Shown: positions 4,212 through 59,850 of the stretch, piece after piece
How the letters are laid out: each line of letters starts with the position of its first letter
How positions within the stretch are numbered: position 1 is the stretch's first letter
Translations under genes and position numbers: made by a program
Notes under the pieces: generated by a model
Told to the model about the DNA's origin: nothing
The model's database searches: none
The model's input: only the letters and a program-made list of their open reading frames with translations
Origin: Deltaproteobacteria bacterium
Lineage (GTDB): Bacteria > Desulfobacterota > Binatia > Bin18
Length of the DNA stretch: 64,000 nt
Direction of reading: 5' to 3'
NCBI GenBank assembly: GCA_016874775.1
Contig: VGTJ01000001.1
Span: forward strand, 40,887 to 104,886

Positions 4212-4288
4212 GCAGAATCGGAGAAACGGGGAATCGGAGAAGCGGAGAATAAAAAAGGTGGGGCGGTCTCCGGTTCTCCGACTCCCCA
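4212..4288. repeat. intergenic repeat family, copy 2 (cagaatcggagaaacggggaatcggagaagcggagaat...ggttctccgactcccc)
   Basis: It lies between the VOC gene and the amidase start. Confidence 0.55.
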
Positions 4289-4299
4289 TTTCAGTGTGC

Positions 4300-4917: not shown

Positions 4918-6240
4918 CTAATGTCGTGCGGCTGCAACCGCTGGGTTGTCAATGATCGCTTGGTTGGCGGCTTTGCCTTGTTTACTTTGGTGTTCGTAGC
5001 CTAACACGGGGATGAGGACTAACCCACCGATAACTTCACCAATACCGAGCGCAACGAAGCCCCAAAAGAACGTGCCACTTTGGTCGTACAAATAACCCAA
5101 CAACAGCGGGCCCATAACGCCACCAAGCCCACCAGCTAAGCCCCCGACGATACCGATTGCCGTGCCGAACACGTGGCCCGGAATGAGATCAAAGACCAGC
5201 ACGACGAAGCCATTTACTGCCGCGGCGTTGAGAAACAAGGCGAGGCTCATGAACGTAATGGTCGCAGTGGCGCTTTCACTCATTCCCATGGCGACGAGGG
5301 CAGGTAAGGTGAACACTGCCGCCACCAGAGAAACGAAGCTGCGACGATAGCCACGGTCACCAAGACCACCAGCGACGTACATCCCCGCGAACGCTGCCAG
5401 GTATGGAATGATGAGATAAATCCCACTCTTCATAATGGTGAAGCCACGTTCTTTGACCAGATACCCTGGGAACCAACTCATCGCCGTGAAGTAGACGCCA
5501 ACACCAAAGAAGGCAGAAATCGTCAGTAACCAAAATGCCGGGATTCCTGAGAGGATTGTCATCCGTTCGCGAAACGACAGCGAAGCAGCAGTATCACCGT
5601 GCGCATTGGCAGTAGCTGGTTCTGATGCGAATGCCTCTCGCACTTCCGCTTTCTCACTTTCTGAGACCCAGGGATGTTCAAGCGGAGTATCGCGCATGAC
5701 GACGGCAAACAGCACCATGACGCCGAGTGTCATAATGCCGACGATGACAAACATCATCCGCCAGTCCCACAAGTTGATGATCCAACCGACCAGTGGCATG
5801 CCGAACGCCACACCAAGATAGGCAAAACCGATGAAGATGCCGTAGGCGCGACCGCGCTCGGCGGGTAATAACCAGTTGTTTTGTAGTTTGTGATTGATGT
5901 TGACCGTGACGCCTTCGGTCAGGCCAAAGAGCAAGCGCACGACGGCAAACTGCCACAATGTCGAGCATGCTCCCGTGAGTGCAGTGAGAACGCTCCAGCC
6001 CAGAATCATCCAGGACGCGAAGTTGCGTAAGGGAATCCGATCGGAGACAAGACCACCAAAAAAATGGCCAAACAGAAACCCCCAGTAGTAGATGCTCAGA
6101 ATAACGCCTGTCTGCATGCCATCGAACTTCAGCTCGTCCATGATCCGCGGCGCGGCTAAGGAGATATTGACGCGGTCAAGCACGAGGAAGAATGAAACCA
6201 CCCATAAGACGCTAATGACGAGCAACCGCGTACCATGCAT
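4918..6240 (-). CDS. MFS transporter (ACS family)
   Basis: 440 aa with 12 predicted TM segments. LVLDRVNISLAAPRIMDELKF...GFLFGHFFGGLVSDR is typical of the MFS ACS family. Confidence 0.85.
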   Translation of the reverse strand: MHGTRLLVISVLWVVSFFLVLDRVNISLAAPRIMDELKFDGMQTGVILSIYYWGFLFGHFFGGLVSDRIPLRNFASWMILGWSVLTALTGACSTLWQFAVVRLLFGLTEGVTVNINHKLQNNWLLPAERGRAYGIFIGFAYLGVAFGMPLVGWIINLWDWRMMFVIVGIMTLGVMVLFAVVMRDTPLEHPWVSESEKAEVREAFASEPATANAHGDTAASLSFRERMTILSGIPAFWLLTISAFFGVGVYFTAMSWFPGYLVKERGFTIMKSGIYLIIPYLAAFAGMYVAGGLGDRGYRRSFVSLVAAVFTLPALVAMGMSESATATITFMSLALFLNAAAVNGFVVLVFDLIPGHVFGTAIGIVGGLAGGLGGVMGPLLLGYLYDQSGTFFWGFVALGIGEVIGGLVLIPVLGYEHQSKQGKAANQAIIDNPAVAAARH

Positions 6241-9250: not shown

Positions 9251-9713
9251 ATTCATACGGCACCTCACATTTAGGAGCCCTATAGTAACCAGCATCGTAG
9301 TGGAGAGTTAAGAGTTAAGAATGGAGGAAAAGAGGGCTCAGCTCTTTCTCAGTTCTTTTTCTGACTCTTCACGCTTCACTCTTAATTCTTCACTGACTTC
9401 CTATTGTTTACTTGTTGTCTGTAACGCCAACTCATCGAGCAATGTCTTGGCTGCCTGTAAGTCGGCAGTGTCGAACCCTTCAGTAAACCATGCGTACACT
9501 TCAGATAACATCCTGTGTGTTTCAGCCAGAGCTGGCAGTTGCGCAGATGATGGTGCGTGAGTCGTGTTGCGTGATGTCCGCTCATCTACTTGATGTTGTC
9601 GCAACCTCGCGAGACTCATCACGGCGCGCAACTCTAGCGATTTGGCGTGCTGTTGTTGAGCGATAGCGATAGCTTTGAGGAAACACTCCTCCACCTCCCG
9701 CATCACCCCATTG

Positions 9714-9786
9714 GGGGCTAGAGACTTGAGACTAGGGGCTTGTGGGGAAAAACCAGTCTCTAACCTCCAGCCTCTAGCCTCCGCGA
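9714..9786. repeat. ~70-bp palindromic element (gagacttg...agcctctagcctcc), copy 1, in-frame inside the regulator TPR region
   Basis: It shares gagacttg, ggggcttg/ccaagcc and agcctctagcctcc with the copy at 12109-12180. It has terminal inverted repeats ggctagag/ctctagcc and encodes the peptide RGWRLETGFSPQAPSLKSLAPNG. Confidence 0.5.
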
Positions 9787-12108
9787 GCGTTAGCTCGCCC
9801 TTGAGCCGATACAACTCCGCTTCATAAAACCGTTCGCCGGTGCTGTCTGCGATCTTCAGTGCTTCTTCCAATAATGACAATCCTTCTACGGCCTGTCCGA
9901 CTTTGCCATCGGCTTCGGCTAGCATGGCCAAATACTGGGTGCGCTCGGATTCAGAACCGATCGCGCGCAATGCGTCGAGGCCTTCATGGATTCGTGCGAT
10001 CCCGGCCTCATCTTGGTCTCGCTCTGTGAGTGCCCAGCCGGAAAACAACGTGCCGACCGCTGTCCACAGCGGAAAGCCGTATTCTCGCGACAAGGTTAAG
10101 ATATCGTTCGCCCGTTCCTGCACAAGTTGTTCTTCGCGTTGAAAGCGATGAAACTGAGCTGAGAGTCCCAACGCTGTTGTATGCACGTGTGGATGAGAGA
10201 CTTCATGGGCAAGCGTCAGAGCCGCATTGTTCCGTTGGCGGGCTTGATCGGGATAGCCACGAAACCACAGCGTCCAGGCGGCAAAGGCGCGTGAGGCGAC
10301 ACCAGGATCATCGCCGTAGAGCAACGCAATCGTACGGTGTCGTTGCACATCATAAAGGGCGATGCTCTGGTGAGATGTTCCTGAGCTGTAACGAGATCGC
10401 CGAGCAGAAACAGTACGTAGCCAAGCATGCCGTGTGCGCCCATGAGTAACGTTTGGTCGTGGGCATGTTGCGCGAGCTGTAGCAGTTGGTTAGCCAATTC
10501 TCGTGCGATAGCGAATTGTCCGCGGACAACGTAGTGGCGATAGAGCCCTGCCAGCGCGGGAAAGAGGGGTGGGGTAACCCCGATTTCTTGACATAACGTT
10601 CGGGCCTCAGCATACACAGCTTCCACCTCGGGTGCGGCGTGGCCTTTGGCTGTGACTAACGAGCCGCCAAGAATGAGCCGTAAAGACAGCTCTTGCTGTT
10701 TCCGTTCTTGGCAGTCAGGGAGATGAGTCAGTAACGACAAGGCTTTGGTGAAGTGCAGGATTGCTTCTTGGTGCGCATGGCGTCGAGTTGCGTTCCTGCC
10801 TGCTTGCCACCGATGGTGCAGCGCGCGAGGATAATCCCGTCCTTGCTCGAAACGTATGGCCAGTTCGGTTGCGATTTCTCGTGCCCGGCTTCCATACGCG
10901 GCTTCGAGTTGTTCGCCGATACGTTGATGTTGGATGATGCGTTGGCGTGCTGTGAGACGCTCAGCGAGAACTTGCTGATGCAAGACATGGAAGAAGCGAT
11001 AACGGGAAGTGACCATGCCATTGGGCCACTCTTCGGTGCCTTTGCGTTGGAGAAACAGGGACTGACGTACGAGTCCCTCACAGCTGGCTTCTACTGCATC
11101 GATGTCCTCGCTCGCGCCTGCGGCAACTGCGGCAGCGGAAAACTCTCTTCCGATGATGCTTGCCGTTTGCAGTATGCGTTGCGCACTGTCGCTGACCTGG
11201 TCAATCTGATGCTCGATGAAGGCATGGAGACCACCGGGAATATCGAGATATTGCACCGTTTGCTGGAAACTCCAGTCACCGCCGCGACCGTCATTCACTT
11301 CTCGTGACACAATATAGTCCACTAAACTGACCATAAACAGCGGGTTGCCCTCTGTACGTTGATGAATCATCTGGGCGAATTGTTGGAGTCCAGACTGCAC
11401 GGCGGGTGCAGCGATAGGGAGACGCGTGGTGATGTAGTCTGCAACCGCAGCGAGTGAGAGCGGCTTGATGACCAGCTCTTCGCAATAGTGGTGAACCTGG
11501 AGATCGTACTTCAACGATTTTAGTGGATGGTTATGCTGTTCTACATCGCTCAGGCGATAGGTCGCGATGATGAGGAGCCGCGCAGGCTGCGGACGACGTG
11601 CGACATACGACAGGAGATCAAGGGTGGCGCTGTCACTCCAGTGAAGATCGGCAAAATGAAACACGAGTGTCTGTTGCTCGGTCAGTGCTTCCAACGCTTC
11701 AGCCAGTTCTCGCAGCATCCGTTCTTTTGTGGAGCTGAGCACACGGGGGCGCAGCGCTTCGAGTGTTTCGTTGGTCACGACGCTCGGCATCTGCGCGAGC
11801 CAGGTCGGTGCGTTCCGACTCAGCGTGTCAACGATGTGTTCATGATCTGGTGCGCGGCAGAGTTGCGTCAATGCTTCCAGCACTGGCATGTACGGCTCGC
11901 CTTCACCAAACTGCGCCAGGCAGTGGCCGCGCGAAATAGCAACGTCCGCGTGGCCCGTCAATCGTTCTAGAAATGTTTCCACGACCGTGGTCTTACCGAT
12001 CCCTGCTTCGCCAGTAACGAACACTATCTGGCGTCTCCCAGTTTTGGCAGCACCTAACCAAGAGTGAAGTTGTGTCAGTTCTGCGTTGCGGCCAACGAGA
12101 CTGGAGGC

Positions 12109-12180
12109 GAGAGACTTGTAGGTTTGCAGGAGGGGGAGGGAGGACCAGCCCCAAGCCTCTAGCCTCCAGCCCCAAGGTGG
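12109..12180. repeat. ~70-bp palindromic element, copy 2, coinciding with the frame switch between the winged-helix and ATPase parts of the regulator
   Basis: It encodes PWGWRLEAWGWSSLPLLQTYKSL in the downstream frame, while the upstream winged-helix frame reads through it out of register. Confidence 0.5.
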
Positions 12181-12511
12181 GCGGCGTGGAGGTGGCAAGC
12201 GGAGCGATAAACTGATACCCGCGTCGATGCACGGTCTCAATAAACTGTGGAGCCTTTGCCTGGTCAGCTAAAGCTTCACGAATTTCGCGAATGCAAACTT
12301 TCAGGACAGCAGCACTCACACGAACATCCGGCCACAGCGCTGCGAAGAGTTCCTCTTTGGTGACTAACTGACCAGCGCGTCCGACGAGATAACACAATAC
12401 TGAGAAGGTTTTGGGTTTAAGCGAGAGTTTTTCAGTGTCACGCCACAGATGCGCGTTGGCCACATCGAGACGAAACGCCCCAAAGCTGACGGTGTGGGTA
12501 TCAATCATGTG

Positions 12512-12555
12512 CTTACCAAAAATTTACCGTACGTTTACCGTAAACTTACCGTAAT
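12512..12555. promoter_or_regulatory. four phased 11-bp direct repeats (YTTACCRWAAN; core TTACCGTA)
   Basis: The repeats are cttaccaaaaa / tttaccgtacg / tttaccgtaaa / cttaccgtaat, with an exact one-helical-turn period. They lie 3 bp from the regulator start codon and upstream of the Cys-rich secreted protein gene. OmpR/SARP-type winged-helix regulators bind phased direct repeats. Confidence 0.45.
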
Positions 12556-12865
12556 TATTCGATTTTTTCCATCTTCTGGAAGGTGTGAGCCGTAAACCCT
12601 CATGTGAGCAGGAGGAGAAAAATGACAAACGAAAAGTGCCGGTCCCTGAAAAAGGTTGGTCGTGCTCCACCGTAGGCCCTCATCACGCGGCTATACATAT
12701 AGGAACAACGACAACAAACACAATTTAGGAGTAACCCTCATGAGCATCAAGATACCACAGGCAAAAACCGACGAACCCTATTCTCTCAACCCACAACTGT
12801 ATGGAGGACATATCATGAAGACATTAGCAGCATCTCTAGACTCACAATTCTTAGGAGAACTCTCT

Positions 12866-13318
12866 ATGAAAGTGAAAGCTTGTCTGCTCGGTTTCATTCT
12901 CGCTCTATTCACTGTTTCCCCCGTCCTTGCCGCGGCTGACTACGAAGACTGGTGGCTCTGCGCCAACGAATGCGCGCCTAGCGATTCCGCCTGTGTCGAT
13001 AAGTGTACTGACGACTACAATAAGACGCATGCTACTCCCTATCCGGCGGACCTCTGCATTCAGGTATTGACCGATACTGGCTTTTTGACGGCAAAGACGG
13101 GATTAGAACGCGCCTCGCATGTGAAAGGACTAAAGCTCAAACGTGGGACAACTGAGGGGGTTGCGTGTGATGGGAAACCCGGCCTCGTCACTCCGTGCCC
13201 AGCCGGTTCGGTGCCGACTCCGTTCCAGATGCCAGTGTACGATAACGCTGGACTCTTTGTGACATGTTACAAGACCATCTCAGTCTGTGTCCCGGCAACC
13301 CTAGAACCTGCGAAATAG
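12866..13318 (+). CDS. secreted cysteine-rich small protein (signal peptide plus about 10 Cys), unknown function
   Basis: MKVKACLLGFILALFTVSPVLAAADYE... is a signal peptide, and an AGGAG Shine-Dalgarno lies 8 nt upstream. An alternative start at 12740 also has an AGGAG. The mature region is rich in Cys, Pro and Gly. Confidence 0.55.
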   Translation: MKVKACLLGFILALFTVSPVLAAADYEDWWLCANECAPSDSACVDKCTDDYNKTHATPYPADLCIQVLTDTGFLTAKTGLERASHVKGLKLKRGTTEGVACDGKPGLVTPCPAGSVPTPFQMPVYDNAGLFVTCYKTISVCVPATLEPAK

Positions 13319-13422: not shown

Positions 13423-13689
13423 GGTCTGACTTCTCCCCGCCAAGAGGGTAGTCTGCAGAACGCCATCTAAGGTCCTGTTTTCTCTTGTAAATGAGGACTT
13501 GTCTTCGGAGTAGGTATCTCCTATAGGGATGAGTCTGGCAAAATAGACAACATAGCAGGAATTCCTTCCAAGGACTCCTCTAATAAGGACTACAAGATCA
13601 TTAAGCTATCTGAACGTTCAGCTCTCGATATTCAGGTGGAGGTGCGAGCGAGTACGTTGCATGTAACGAGTCGGCGTCGCTGGCCTGCA

Positions 13690-16581
13690 ATGATGCGCAA
13701 CTTCGTGGTGACTATGATATGGGGATGCGTAGGGCTGTTGAGCTTTGCGGCTCGCGCTGCTGCTGAACCGAGCCTCACTGCTAGTCCTGGCACGCTCGCT
13801 AGCGGCGGAACTGTGACAGTAACCTGGAGTGACATCACGAACCCCACGAGCCGTGACTGGATCGGATTGTATCGTCTGGGATGGGCGGATACGGCCTACT
13901 TATCCTTTCAGTATGTCAATTGCAGCCAAACTCCCGGTGCTACCCCGCGGGCCAGCGGCTCGTGCACCTTCGGACTCGGCGGCTCTGGTAACTACGAATT
14001 CCGTTACTTCCGTAATAATGGGTTTATCAAGGTGGTTACGAGTAATCCGGTGACCGTAGGAGCAACCGGGACGCTGCCGACGGTGAGTATTCAAGCGACG
14101 ACGGCGACGGCAGCAGAAGGGGGAGCAGCCGGGCAGTTCACCGTGAGTCGGACGGGCAGTACGACGAGCGCATTGACGGTGAACTACACGGTCGGCGGGA
14201 CGGCGAGCAGTGGTGGTGATTATCAAGCTCTGAGTGGGAGTGTGACGATCCCAGCCGGGCAGACGACGGCGGTGATTGCGGTGACCCCGGTGGATGATAC
14301 GGCAGTGGAGAGCAATGAGACGGTGGTGGCGACACTGAGCGCGAATGCTGCGTACACGGTGGGGACACCGGCGAGTGCGACGGTGACGATCACGGACAAC
14401 GATGTGGGCAGTGGGCCAACGCTGACGGCAAGTCCGGCTACGATCCCGGTGGGTGGCGCAGTAACTGTGAGTTGGAGTGGCGTGACGAATCCCAGTGAAC
14501 GCGACTGGATTGGGGTGTACCAGCCTGGCCTACCAAATACCGGCTATTTGGCCTGGAAATATGTCAGTTGCTCGCAGACGCCAGGAGTGCCGCGGGCGTC
14601 AGGGTCGTGCACCTTCTTCCCCGCACCCGTCGGCATCTATGAATTCCGCTATCTGCGCAATGATAGCTATACGAGCATCGCTACCAGTAATACGGTCCAT
14701 GCGAGCGCAGTAACCGTGCCTAGCGGATTTAACCAGTCAATTTATGTCAATACGCTCATCGCGCCAACCGCGATGGCCTTTGCGCCTGATGGGCGGCTGT
14801 TTATCGCCGAGCAAAGTGGTCGAATACGTATCGTTACCGCGGATGGTACGCTGCTACCAACCCCCTTTGTTGATCTCGCTCCCCAGATTAGTACCGGCAG
14901 CGAGCGTGGGCTCCTTGGGATTGCGGTTGATCCCAACAGTACCCCTCTCTATGTCTATGTTTACTACACAGCCAGCGTGCCAGCGCCCCACATTCGGATC
15001 AGTCGCCTGGTTGCCAGTAGTAACCAGGTCAACCTGAGCAGTGAAGAGATCTTTCTTGAACTTGACAACGTCGTTGCCGGGAACCTGAATGGTGGTGGAT
15101 TGCATTTCGGCAGTGATGGCAAGCTGTATATTGCCACTGGGGAGAACTCTAGCCCCAATCTCTCGCAGATGTTGATTAGCACCTTGGGCAAGATACTGCG
15201 GGTCAACCCTAATCCGGCGAGCTTTATTCCAGCGGACAACCCGTTCGTGGCGCAAACGACCGGGAGAAATCAGGCCATCTATGCGCTTGGTCTCCGCAAC
15301 CCCTTTACCTTTGCGGTCCATCCAGCCAACGGCAGAATCTTTGTCAACGATGTCGGGCGCTTGGATTTTGAGGAGGTGAACGAAATTGGGCGGGGGCTGA
15401 ACTATGGCTGGCCGTTGTGCGAAGGACCGTGTAACGACGTGCGTTTCACCAATCCCGTCTATGCCTATGACCACGCGCAGGGGTGTGCGGTGACCGGCGG
15501 AGTGTTTGATGATCCCCGCGTAGCCCAACTGCCGTCTGTGTATGAGGGGAATTACTTCTTTGCAGATTGTTGCAATGGCTGGATTCGCCGACTAGATCCG
15601 GCCAATGGGAACACTGTAAGTGATTTTTCTTCGGGCTATGGGCGCATCGTCGATCTAGACTTTGGACCTGACGGAGCGCTCTATGTCCTCGACGCGAATT
15701 ATTACGATGGTGGTGCACTTCTGCGCACCGTGTATCAACCGACCAACCAACCGCCCAGCATTACGTTACACCCGGCGAATGGGCGTGTCGGGATAGGACA
15801 GGCGGCCACCTTTACGGTTAGTGCGTTGGGCACACCTCCATTGACCTATCAGTGGCAGAAAAACGGTAGTGATATTCCGGGGGCGACGACAGCCTCGTAT
15901 CTCACGCCCAGTGCTATCCTGGCTGACAATGGCGCAACCTTCCGTTGTCGCGTGACGAATGCATTTGGGACTGCCACCAGCAATGCTGCCACACTCACTG
16001 TGATCGGACAGGCGCCATCAGCTTCCATTGTGCTGCCTGCACTTGGGACGTTGTATACGGCTGGGCAACCAGTGAATTTCTCTGGGCAGGCGTCAGACCC
16101 CGAAGATGGCGTATTACCGCCGTCAGCTTTTACCTGGGATGTGGATTTCCATCACGACGACACTGGTGAGCATGTTCACCCTGCCGATCCGCCGGTGAGC
16201 GGCATTGTCAGTGGGTCATTCACCCCGCCGACCAATGAGGAAGCCTCAGCGAACGTGTGGTATCGGATAATCTTGACCGTGAGAGATTCCGATGATTTGA
16301 CGTTTACGACGTATAGCGATGTTTATCCGCGTACCGCGTTGATAAGCTTGGCCACGAACGTACCGGGGCTACAGCTGACGCTTGGTGGGACTCCGGTGAC
16401 GGTGCCACACGCAGTGCTTGCAGTGGTTGGGCACGAGCATACGTTAAGTGCACCCCTCACACAGACGATCAATGGGCTGACGTATATATTCACCGGCTGG
16501 TCCGATGGTGGTGCGGCAACGCATACCATTACGACGCCAGAGACCGATACGACGTACACTGCTAACTACCAACTGCAGTGA
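13690..16581 (+). CDS. large secreted multidomain protein: duplicated unclassified ~95-aa domain, Calx-beta, PQQ-dependent sugar dehydrogenase-like beta-propeller, Ig-like domain, C-terminal beta-sandwich region
   Basis: Signal peptide MMRNFVVTMIWGCVGLLSFAARAAA.
- Two copies of the unclassified domain have the pattern TVTWS..TNP..RDWIGLY..C.QTPG..RASGSCTF..YEFRY.
- The Calx-beta region reads ATTATAAEGG..FTVSRTGST..LTVNYTV.
- AFAPDGRLFIAEQSGRIRIV...NYGWP is typical of the soluble glucose/sorbosone dehydrogenase family.
- LTYQWQKNGSDIPGATTASY is an I-set Ig-like repeat. Confidence 0.85.
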   Translation: MMRNFVVTMIWGCVGLLSFAARAAAEPSLTASPGTLASGGTVTVTWSDITNPTSRDWIGLYRLGWADTAYLSFQYVNCSQTPGATPRASGSCTFGLGGSGNYEFRYFRNNGFIKVVTSNPVTVGATGTLPTVSIQATTATAAEGGAAGQFTVSRTGSTTSALTVNYTVGGTASSGGDYQALSGSVTIPAGQTTAVIAVTPVDDTAVESNETVVATLSANAAYTVGTPASATVTITDNDVGSGPTLTASPATIPVGGAVTVSWSGVTNPSERDWIGVYQPGLPNTGYLAWKYVSCSQTPGVPRASGSCTFFPAPVGIYEFRYLRNDSYTSIATSNTVHASAVTVPSGFNQSIYVNTLIAPTAMAFAPDGRLFIAEQSGRIRIVTADGTLLPTPFVDLAPQISTGSERGLLGIAVDPNSTPLYVYVYYTASVPAPHIRISRLVASSNQVNLSSEEIFLELDNVVAGNLNGGGLHFGSDGKLYIATGENSSPNLSQMLISTLGKILRVNPNPASFIPADNPFVAQTTGRNQAIYALGLRNPFTFAVHPANGRIFVNDVGRLDFEEVNEIGRGLNYGWPLCEGPCNDVRFTNPVYAYDHAQGCAVTGGVFDDPRVAQLPSVYEGNYFFADCCNGWIRRLDPANGNTVSDFSSGYGRIVDLDFGPDGALYVLDANYYDGGALLRTVYQPTNQPPSITLHPANGRVGIGQAATFTVSALGTPPLTYQWQKNGSDIPGATTASYLTPSAILADNGATFRCRVTNAFGTATSNAATLTVIGQAPSASIVLPALGTLYTAGQPVNFSGQASDPEDGVLPPSAFTWDVDFHHDDTGEHVHPADPPVSGIVSGSFTPPTNEEASANVWYRIILTVRDSDDLTFTTYSDVYPRTALISLATNVPGLQLTLGGTPVTVPHAVLAVVGHEHTLSAPLTQTINGLTYIFTGWSDGGAATHTITTPETDTTYTANYQLQ

Positions 16582-59728: not shown

Positions 59729-59850
59729 CGGGGAAAAACAAAAGCTGAAATGGAGAATCGGGGAAACGGGGAATCGGTGACAATAGGGAACAGGAGTTTT
59801 TTATTCTCCGATTCTCCCTGTCTCCGCTTCCCCGCTTCCCCTTCTCCTCT
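59729..59850. repeat. intergenic repeat family, copy 3 (core ggagaatcggggaaacggggaatcggtgacaa ... ctccgattctcc)
   Basis: It shares the core with copies at about 697-775 and 4212-4288. The inverted arms are ggagaatcgg/ccgattctcc. It lies between the adaptor and RND pump genes. Confidence 0.6.

Follow-up and report, generated by a model that had tools for sequence, protein, structure and literature searches.

A 64,000-nucleotide stretch of DNA from a Deltaproteobacteria bacterium of the Binatia lineage (GenBank assembly GCA_016874775.1, contig VGTJ01000001.1, positions 40,887 to 104,886), referred to here as the window, contains an array of four 11-bp direct repeats (12512 to 12555) next to the start of a minus-strand regulator gene. 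The regulator consists of an N-terminal OmpR/PhoB-type winged helix-turn-helix (wHTH) domain, an AAA_16 NTPase, and tetratricopeptide repeats (TPRs), and comparative sequence analysis indicates, with a probability of about 0.75, that the array is a cooperative operator of this adjacent wHTH-AAA_16-TPR protein. Read directly, the units are cttaccaaaaa (12512 to 12522), tttaccgtacg (12523 to 12533), tttaccgtaaa (12534 to 12544), and cttaccgtaat (12545 to 12555). TTACC begins at 12513, 12524, 12535, and 12546, a period of exactly 11 bp, and corresponds to GGTAA on the regulator's strand (cores at 12513 to 12517, 12524 to 12528, 12535 to 12539, and 12546 to 12550). Three nucleotides, gtg (12509 to 12511), separate the array from cat (12506 to 12508), the complement of the regulator's ATG, and the minus-strand units of GGTAA plus 6 nt occupy -42 to -4 relative to that ATG. 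Direct reading thus confirmed the description in the initial annotation of four exactly phased 11-bp units lying 3 nt from a regulator start codon on the opposite strand, with the ATG at 12508. Tandem Repeats Finder reported a period of 11 with 3.2 copies and a score of 49. When TTACC-N6-TTACC-N6-TTACC was searched with up to two mismatches, the array was the sole site in the 64 kb, where 0.03 was expected, and 0 of 100 shuffles had at least two.

Two details of the earlier description required revision. It had taken TTACCGTA as the conserved core, and this sequence does occur four times in the window, three of them in the array, with 0.61 expected; the conserved part, however, is TTACC followed by an A/T-rich spacer. 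GTA follows TTACC on the plus strand in three window units, but AAA, GAA, or GCA is found there elsewhere among the orthologs, and because of this variation the TTACCGTA core is partly specific to this genome. The proposed fifth partial copy, ccgtaaaccc, is located at 12590 to 12599 rather than at 12589, and the TTA that never varies in the cores is missing from it; if aligned with the other units, it would begin at 12587, which is 41 bp beyond the fourth and thus out of phase.

Three orthologous proteins of 1010 to 1040 amino acids, with 70 to 73% identity, are intact, and orthologs at three additional loci (L125 to L127) were added by a protein-based scan of metagenome contigs. The ortholog loci are syntenic with the window, with genes for an enoyl-CoA hydratase, a major facilitator superfamily transporter, and a peptidase M3 on one side and a gene for a small, divergently encoded secreted protein on the other. 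The array is found at the same place in all six distinct ortholog sequences and reads, on the regulator strand, GGTAA-N6-GGTAA-N6-GGTAA-N6-GGTAAgcaN-ATG, with cores starting at -42, -31, -20, and -9. Five of the six sequences have four GGTAA units, and L127 has three, its ATG-distal unit being AGTAA. Pairwise comparison of the six orthologs gave 98.3% identity over the 20 core positions (295 of 300) and 79% over the 22 spacer positions, whereas fourfold degenerate sites in the first 100 regulator codons have a mean identity of 48% (30 to 51% for the window against the others). These silent sites are near saturation, and the core, phase, and offset of the array are under strong purifying selection. 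The unit consensus across orthologs is GGTAA-R-Y-T-T-T-Y, and the array has the grammar of a direct-repeat operator, with at least two repeats about one helical turn apart, each pairing a conserved core with an A/T-rich spacer of lower conservation. An inverted-repeat operator for a dimer was also considered, since GTTTACcGTAAAC (12533 to 12545) is a perfect 6-1-6 palindrome in the window and at L001. It was rejected because the palindrome is broken at L003 and L125 to L127 (GCAAAC) while the direct TTACC cores are invariant, and it is the direct repeats, rather than the palindrome, that are under selection.

Phased arrays are also found upstream of other members of the regulator family. A metagenome scan yielded 80 loci of relatives that are 52 to 84% identical over the wHTH domain; their start codons were located and the upstream DNA was examined. 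After dereplication, 73 regulator genes remained, and 4-mer autocorrelation over the 80 nt preceding each of them peaked at period 11 with 2.47 matches per locus; the corresponding values were 0.19 for coding sequence, 0.44 for positions -260 to -180, and 0.2 to 1.1 for all other periods from 5 to 20. At least three GGT[AT][ACT] (GGTWH) cores spaced at exactly 11 bp were present in 16 of 72 upstream regions, but in none of the 72 coding windows or 720 shuffles and in only 1 of 65 far-upstream windows. Chains of at least three units span five independent 75%-identity clusters, and those of at least two units span eight. Both strands of 268 kb of regulator loci contained 17 chains, all upstream of a regulator on its sense strand, and 14 of them end at -4 or -10. 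The arrays in related subfamilies have three or four units of GGTAA or GGTTC, and the 11-bp spacing is exact. GGTAA or GGTAC is used by the ortholog group and four lineages (L129, L141, L184, and L198), and GGTTC is used by one large subfamily and L177. The residue before VLKVCIREIR is Ala in all 10 cases with GGTAA or GGTAC and Thr in all 10 cases with GGTTC; in the window ORF it is Ala66 (...VSAAVLK...). From the alignment with PhoB, we take this residue to lie at the N-terminal end of helix α-3, beside the base-contacting positions. Core type tracks this residue adjacent to the recognition helix, an association that is suggestive only.

The array also appears to be a local element. A second GGTAA-N6-GGTAA pair is absent from the 64 kb of the window and from every ortholog locus (about 100 kb around the orthologs). 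The window encodes no paralog of the regulator, and the neighborhood of the window and ortholog loci has no other conserved DNA-binding gene. Together, these results tie the array to the adjacent regulator and its divergent partner. The proposal in the initial annotation that the array is a recognition site for the neighboring winged-helix domain, used for autoregulation or for control of the divergent secreted-protein locus, is therefore supported by comparison: the cores are nearly invariant among orthologs with near-saturated fourfold sites, analogous arrays precede other subfamilies only on the sense strand of the regulator and nowhere else in the regulator loci searched, core type covaries with the residue at the start of the recognition helix, and the window and ortholog loci hold no other phased pair.

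The fold of the regulator and the grammar of its array follow the OmpR/PhoB paradigm. Trans_reg_C (PF00486) matches residues 26 to 100 with 66.7 bits (gathering cutoff, 26.2; E = 1.9e-18), and AAA_16 matches with 95.2 bits (cutoff, 32.6; E = 8e-27), with the Walker A motif GEAGIGKT present. TPR_MalT, TPR_12, and TPR_4 match the TPR part, which places the protein among STAND NTPases with TPRs. In intact orthologs, Trans_reg_C is likewise at residues 26 to 100, and AAA_16 starts at about 131 (131 to 153), so that only about 30 to 50 low-complexity residues separate the wHTH, which ends near residue 100, from the NTPase. The nearest PDB relatives of the wHTH are the effector domains of OmpR/PhoB proteins (PhoB, OmpR, RstA, and KdpE), CadC, and ToxR. 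The window protein and its orthologs have no Response_reg match, and the wHTH begins at residue 1; the protein is not a two-component response regulator. The OmpR half of the OmpR/SARP framing in the initial annotation thus held, as the wHTH is of the Trans_reg_C type; the protein is not a SARP, however, because no BTAD domain follows the OmpR-type domain (no match at E ≤ 0.1 in the window protein or intact orthologs), and the SARPs serve only as an analogy. Two other assignments were rejected. The HilA/EilA model (NCBIfam NF009037) scored 55.6 bits against a cutoff of 589, with only the DNA-binding domain matching (residues 8 to 105), and the TOMM system kinase/cyclase fusion model (TIGR03903) scored 268.4 bits against 705.75, matching only the NTPase-TPR body (profile positions 475 to 1265), while the N terminus here is a wHTH.

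In comparison with known systems, the array resembles the PHO boxes bound by PhoB and PhoP, which are composed of direct repeats of 11 nt, each with a conserved core and a more variable A/T-rich spacer, and are bound head to tail (PMC4415409). The regulator shares the Trans_reg_C fold and this unit structure with those proteins but has no receiver domain or phosphorylation, its wHTH forms the N terminus of a fusion with a STAND NTPase and TPRs, its core is the 5-bp GGTAA rather than 7 bp, and its array abuts the regulator's own start codon. In SARPs, repeats 11 or 22 bp apart overlap the -35 region of weak promoters, with the 3' repeat located 8 bp from the -10 element (PMC10936776). The likeness to SARP/AfsR and the afs box lies in the "large SARP" logic of an N-terminal OmpR-type domain, an NTPase oligomerization module, and a TPR sensor, as well as in the 11-bp spacing; the differences are the missing BTAD, the AAA_16/MalT-like NTPase, and the nonactinobacterial lineage. 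HilA/EilA, CadC, and ToxR likewise have an N-terminal wHTH and no receiver, and the NCBIfam HilA/EilA and CadC models match residues 4 to 107, but the scores are far below the cutoffs (55.6 versus 589 for HilA and 41.9 versus 400 for CadC). Moreover, the regulator is without the transmembrane or periplasmic part of CadC and ToxR and has a P-loop NTPase, which is absent in HilA/EilA, CadC, and ToxR. HilA has TPRs and recognizes a direct repeat of hexamers at 11-bp intervals, and the sites of ToxR are phased direct repeats as well. Binding of MalT to several phased MalT boxes is cooperative, and the AAA_16 and MalT-like TPR matches suggest ligand- or ATP-driven oligomerization of the regulator, with which four in-phase sites would be consistent, although its DNA-binding domain is an N-terminal wHTH and that of MalT is a C-terminal LuxR-type helix-turn-helix. 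Judged by sequence, the array belongs to a well-known kind of cis element, being PHO-box- or afs-box-like, and very probably serves as the operator of its neighboring regulator. The mechanism, an OmpR-type winged helix on phased direct repeats, is classical and would not surprise a specialist.

We infer that this protein binds the array with one wHTH per unit, all on one face of the DNA. Each recognition helix would enter the major groove at GGTAA and each wing would contact the A/T-rich spacer, with the protomers arranged head to tail and the oligomerizing NTPase-TPR body providing cooperativity. On the regulator strand, the only conserved -10-like hexamer is AATRAT, just upstream of the array (AATAAT in the window, 12554 to 12559, minus strand; AATGAT in orthologs; invariant A-T-Y-A-T-T columns); it may be the -10 element of the regulator's promoter, although no -35 is conserved. 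As the array lies downstream of this hexamer at -42 to -4, its occupancy should block transcription of the regulator, giving negative autoregulation. A leaderless regulator mRNA is unlikely, since positions -12 to -7 are TTTGGT or TTCGGT, which is not a -10. In the opposite direction, a putative divergent promoter (12546 to 12575, plus strand) consists of a -35-like TTACCG (12546 to 12551), an 18-nt spacer, and a -10-like CATCTT (12570 to 12575), with the -35-like element inside the array unit farthest from the regulator's ATG. TTACYG-N18-CATCYT is found at the same offset in all six orthologs and at the more distant L129, where the regulator is a match to P0005 (54% identity with the window protein), despite differing spacer sequence, and TTTTYCCATCYT is a conserved block in the ortholog alignment around this putative promoter. 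In addition, a CCGTA element (12590 to 12594, plus strand), which is not a phased repeat copy, lies 14 nt past CATCYT in all orthologs and L129.

The same bound complex would probably activate the transcript for a short upstream open reading frame (ORF) and a Cys-rich secreted protein, in the way that PhoB/PhoP and SARPs replace the -35 contact; tandem PhoP dimers on four units displace the contact between the -35 region and sigma region 4 (PMC11825685). CATCYT, the sole conserved divergent -10-like hexamer, lies 14 bp beyond 12555, where the SARP rule is 8 bp; the predicted transcription starts are near 12582 on the plus strand and near 12545 to 12550 on the minus strand. For the GGTTC group, the regulator-side promoter is a good TTGCAW-N17-NAGAAT match upstream of the array, about 65 to 70 nt before the ATG, so that the array falls within the leader, and in the divergent direction ATGACT-N18-TATTYT is located immediately beyond the array. 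The divergent pairs of both groups have the geometry of activator-dependent promoters. That one complex silences the promoter of the regulator and switches on the divergent one, a sign of regulation read from the promoter positions, is plausible at slightly less than even odds. More tentatively, and rather doubtfully, the array may act as a DNA template for the STAND NTPase, with ligand and ATP causing four (or 2 + 2) protomers to oligomerize and flip the overlapping back-to-back promoters, so that the regulator's transcript, which lacks a Shine-Dalgarno (SD) sequence, would go off and the divergent operon of the upstream ORF and the Cys-rich protein would go on. If this were true, a one-residue/one-core code (Ala-GGTAA and Thr-GGTTC) would allow thousands of soil-bacterial paralogs to run insulated local circuits.

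Several observations weigh against the operator interpretation. The covariation between residue and core comes from few independent lineages, and the recognition helix was preset by the metagenome search pattern K[VT]CIREIR. No GGTWH array precedes about 70% of the relatives in the sample, most of which have GC-rich surroundings, and the arrays are accordingly a subfamily trait. A scan of 12300 to 13000 for consensus sigma-70 promoters and terminators found none, and both proposed promoters are weak matches below its threshold. The regulator's mRNA leader would consist of the array and has no SD sequence, although neighboring genes have strong ones. Finally, the regulator is frameshifted in this genome, yet its array is perfect and has not decayed with the gene.

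This last point, together with the general recognition of 11-bp direct repeats by OmpR/PhoB-type proteins (PMC4415409), would suit a different, unlinked factor, such as a global OmpR-family response regulator, for which the adjacent regulator is only a target. We consider this unlikely, because arrays with a fixed offset and strand precede several subfamilies of one regulator family in unrelated gene neighborhoods, the core changes with the residue near the recognition helix of the adjacent protein, and about 100 kb around the orthologs hold no other site. A structural role, in which phased T-tracts bend the DNA intrinsically and thereby serve one or both divergent promoters as an UP element would, draws on the T-rich, helix-phased spacers (T in 13 to 18 of 24 units at positions 7 to 9). 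It is very improbable, however, since the GGTAA core is more strongly selected than the T-tract, other subfamilies have the same period with GGTTC as the core, and the strictly fixed strand orientation is not required by curvature alone.

A role of the repeats in the mRNA is given the same very low probability. An array that abuts the ATG (-4) of an SD-less gene and always lies on the sense strand might present GGUAA every 11 nt in the 5' leader to an RNA-binding factor or take part in standby or S1-dependent initiation. The region from 12400 to 13000, however, has no Rfam match, the secondary structure of the array strand is not significant (z = -1.3), and a period of exactly 11 nt reflects the DNA helix and has, to our knowledge, no meaning in RNA. 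The adjacent gene, moreover, encodes a DNA-binding wHTH protein. Part of the GGTTC subfamily also has an ordinary GGAGA SD sequence after the array, which is therefore not itself the ribosome site. TTACC-containing 11-bp tandem repeats are common across bacteria, and the array might for that reason be a functionless microsatellite left by neutral slippage. This explanation is effectively refuted, as copy number, phase, and offset are the same in orthologs with near-saturated synonymous sites and the units differ in their spacers and not in their cores, the opposite of recent slippage. Plasmid or phage iterons were also ruled out, since these are repeats of about 17 to 22 bp by a rep gene or origin, while the units here are 11 bp, there is no rep gene, and the neighbors are chromosomal metabolic genes that are syntenic across contigs.

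The wHTH-AAA_16-TPR regulators are very abundant in soil metagenomes and Binatia-like metagenome-assembled genomes (MAGs), with more than 4000 relatives at E ≤ 1e-20 among 8000 candidates scored. Literature searches found no characterized member or DNA motif for these regulators and no study of the architecture outside SARPs. The array would thus provide the first DNA motif predicted for a very large uncharacterized regulator family, together with a testable operator model of three or four units with GGTAA or GGTTC cores at 11 bp, a fixed offset from the regulator start, and a candidate specificity residue. The model also names a conserved target class, the divergently encoded small secreted proteins, and makes the family approachable by electrophoretic mobility shift assays or DNA affinity purification sequencing on synthetic DNA, although the organisms are uncultured.

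The initial annotation described the regulator as broken, and alignment with the intact ortholog P0003 confirms two frameshifts. P0003 residues 1 to 107 correspond to 12508 to 12188, residues 130 to 729 to 12102 to 10363 in another frame, and residues 728 to 1034 to 10369 to 9428 in the first frame again. On the minus strand, the wHTH domain accordingly lies at 12188 to 12508, its frame remaining open to 11993 past the first frameshift; the AAA_16 domain and first TPR part lie at 10363 to 12102 in a different frame; and the C-terminal TPR part lies at 9401 to 10369 in the original frame. The corresponding ORFs are 11993 to 12508 (winged helix), 10216 to 12240 (AAA_16 and TPRs), and 9401 to 10348 (TPRs). 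The first frameshift falls between 12188 and 12102, in the low-complexity linker, and the second, near 10366 (ctc-ac-cag), is the loss of one nucleotide outside any homopolymer. In the sequence as assembled, the sole wHTH-containing product would be 171 amino acids long, and the switch may therefore be disabled or constitutive here. One piece of the regulator has an exact match in a hypothetical protein from a MAG labeled Deltaproteobacteria, and many relatives are labeled Candidatus Binatia.

The linker between the wHTH and AAA_16 (12102 to 12188) and a C-terminal insert (9753 to 9782) encode a similar low-complexity peptide, W-R-L-E-A...S..PQA.SLK..A, on 7-bp DNA repeats of CCAGCCT (linker repeat at 12145 to 12171), and its versions vary in orthologs. 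The first frameshift is just upstream of this 7-bp-repeat stretch. P0003 residues 123 to 978 (window 9428 to 12102) match the NCBIfam TOMM kinase/cyclase fusion model with an E value of 1.3e-79, below the cutoff, and relatives with an adenylate/guanylate cyclase N terminus in place of the wHTH are found in the same genomes (P0020; L001, 14615 to 15060). The output domain appears to have been swapped on a common NTPase-TPR sensor body.

On the divergent side, a strong SD sequence, AGGAGGAG (12610 to 12617), precedes a 17-codon upstream ORF (ATG at 12622; TAG at 12673 to 12675; the whole feature at 12610 to 12675, plus strand) that encodes MTNEKCRSLKKVGRAPP followed by the stop. The SD sequence and ATG are kept in six of six orthologs, about 67 nt beyond the array (at L003, about 5539 to 5592 on the minus strand), and the divergent transcript probably has this ORF as its first cistron. 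The encoded peptide, in contrast, varies: L003 encodes MSAENQAPGKQGKRAPP followed by a stop, L125 has the same frame with an internal TAG and ends in ...HTPP-stop, L126 and L127 encode the 8-amino-acid MARADPT[QK], and the third codon at L001 is a stop. The RAPP-stop C terminus recalls RAPP ribosome-arrest motifs, and control of the secreted-protein gene by a leader peptide is possible. The gene for the small Cys-rich secreted protein (12740 to 13318, plus strand) has in-frame starts at 12740, 12815, and 12866 and a stop at 13318, and the signal-peptide-like sequence MKVKACLLGF... begins at 12866. Counted from 12555, the candidate starts at 12740 and 12866 lie at distances of 185 and 311 nt, in agreement with the distance of about 185 to 310 nt given previously. 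Searches with the Cys-rich protein gave no Pfam, NCBIfam, or PDB match.

The regulators of the GGTTC subfamily and one other subfamily are accompanied by a conserved protein of about 64 amino acids (...KTAFV(V/I)RFDP.SDIESG.IEG.VEHVASF.T.RF.SL.ELL.FVG...). Its gene is divergent from the regulator gene at L135, L143, L150, L147, L140, L157, and L185 and codirectional and immediately upstream of it at L128 and L131, often beside a gene for a BON-like secreted protein. In the window, a 981-amino-acid secreted protein with SKICH-like, Calx-beta, glucose/sorbosone dehydrogenase beta-propeller, and Ig domains is encoded at 13636 to 16581, between the SCP2/aminotransferase gene pair and the Cys-rich protein gene. 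These neighbors are adjacent at L001, and the gene looks like an insertion relative to the ortholog locus.

Arrays of the 8-bp repeat GAAWCGGG in the window were considered as operators of paralogous regulators and are instead arms of repetitive extragenic palindromic (REP)-like hairpin elements by unrelated genes. Three such intergenic hairpins, REP-like or similar to miniature inverted-repeat transposable elements, lie at 4214 to 4292, 59742 to 59847, and 694 to 770 and combine GAAWCGGG repeats with a complementary CCGMTTCC arm. The arms are 26 to 39 nt long and 72 to 88% complementary, and the elements are located between codirectional genes (glyoxalase/amidase and HlyD-like/AcrB, as well as upstream of an EamA transporter). 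A generic genome scan for four TTACC-N6 units gave, among the matches listed, unrelated 11-bp tandem repeats, mostly in Bacteroidota and Firmicutes, and those sharing TTACCGTA (L075, L116, L076, and L093) are not beside wHTH-STAND genes, some being near genes for extracytoplasmic function (ECF) sigma factors. In many Bacteroidota genomes (for example, L005, L008, L023, L047, L061, L066, L069, L070, L077, L080, and L122), TTACC-N6 arrays with an 11-bp period are directly followed by an inverted GGTAA-N6 array. These arrays, some of which lie near ECF sigma factor genes (L075 and L093), are unrelated to the Binatia-type regulators and constitute a recurrent phased element.

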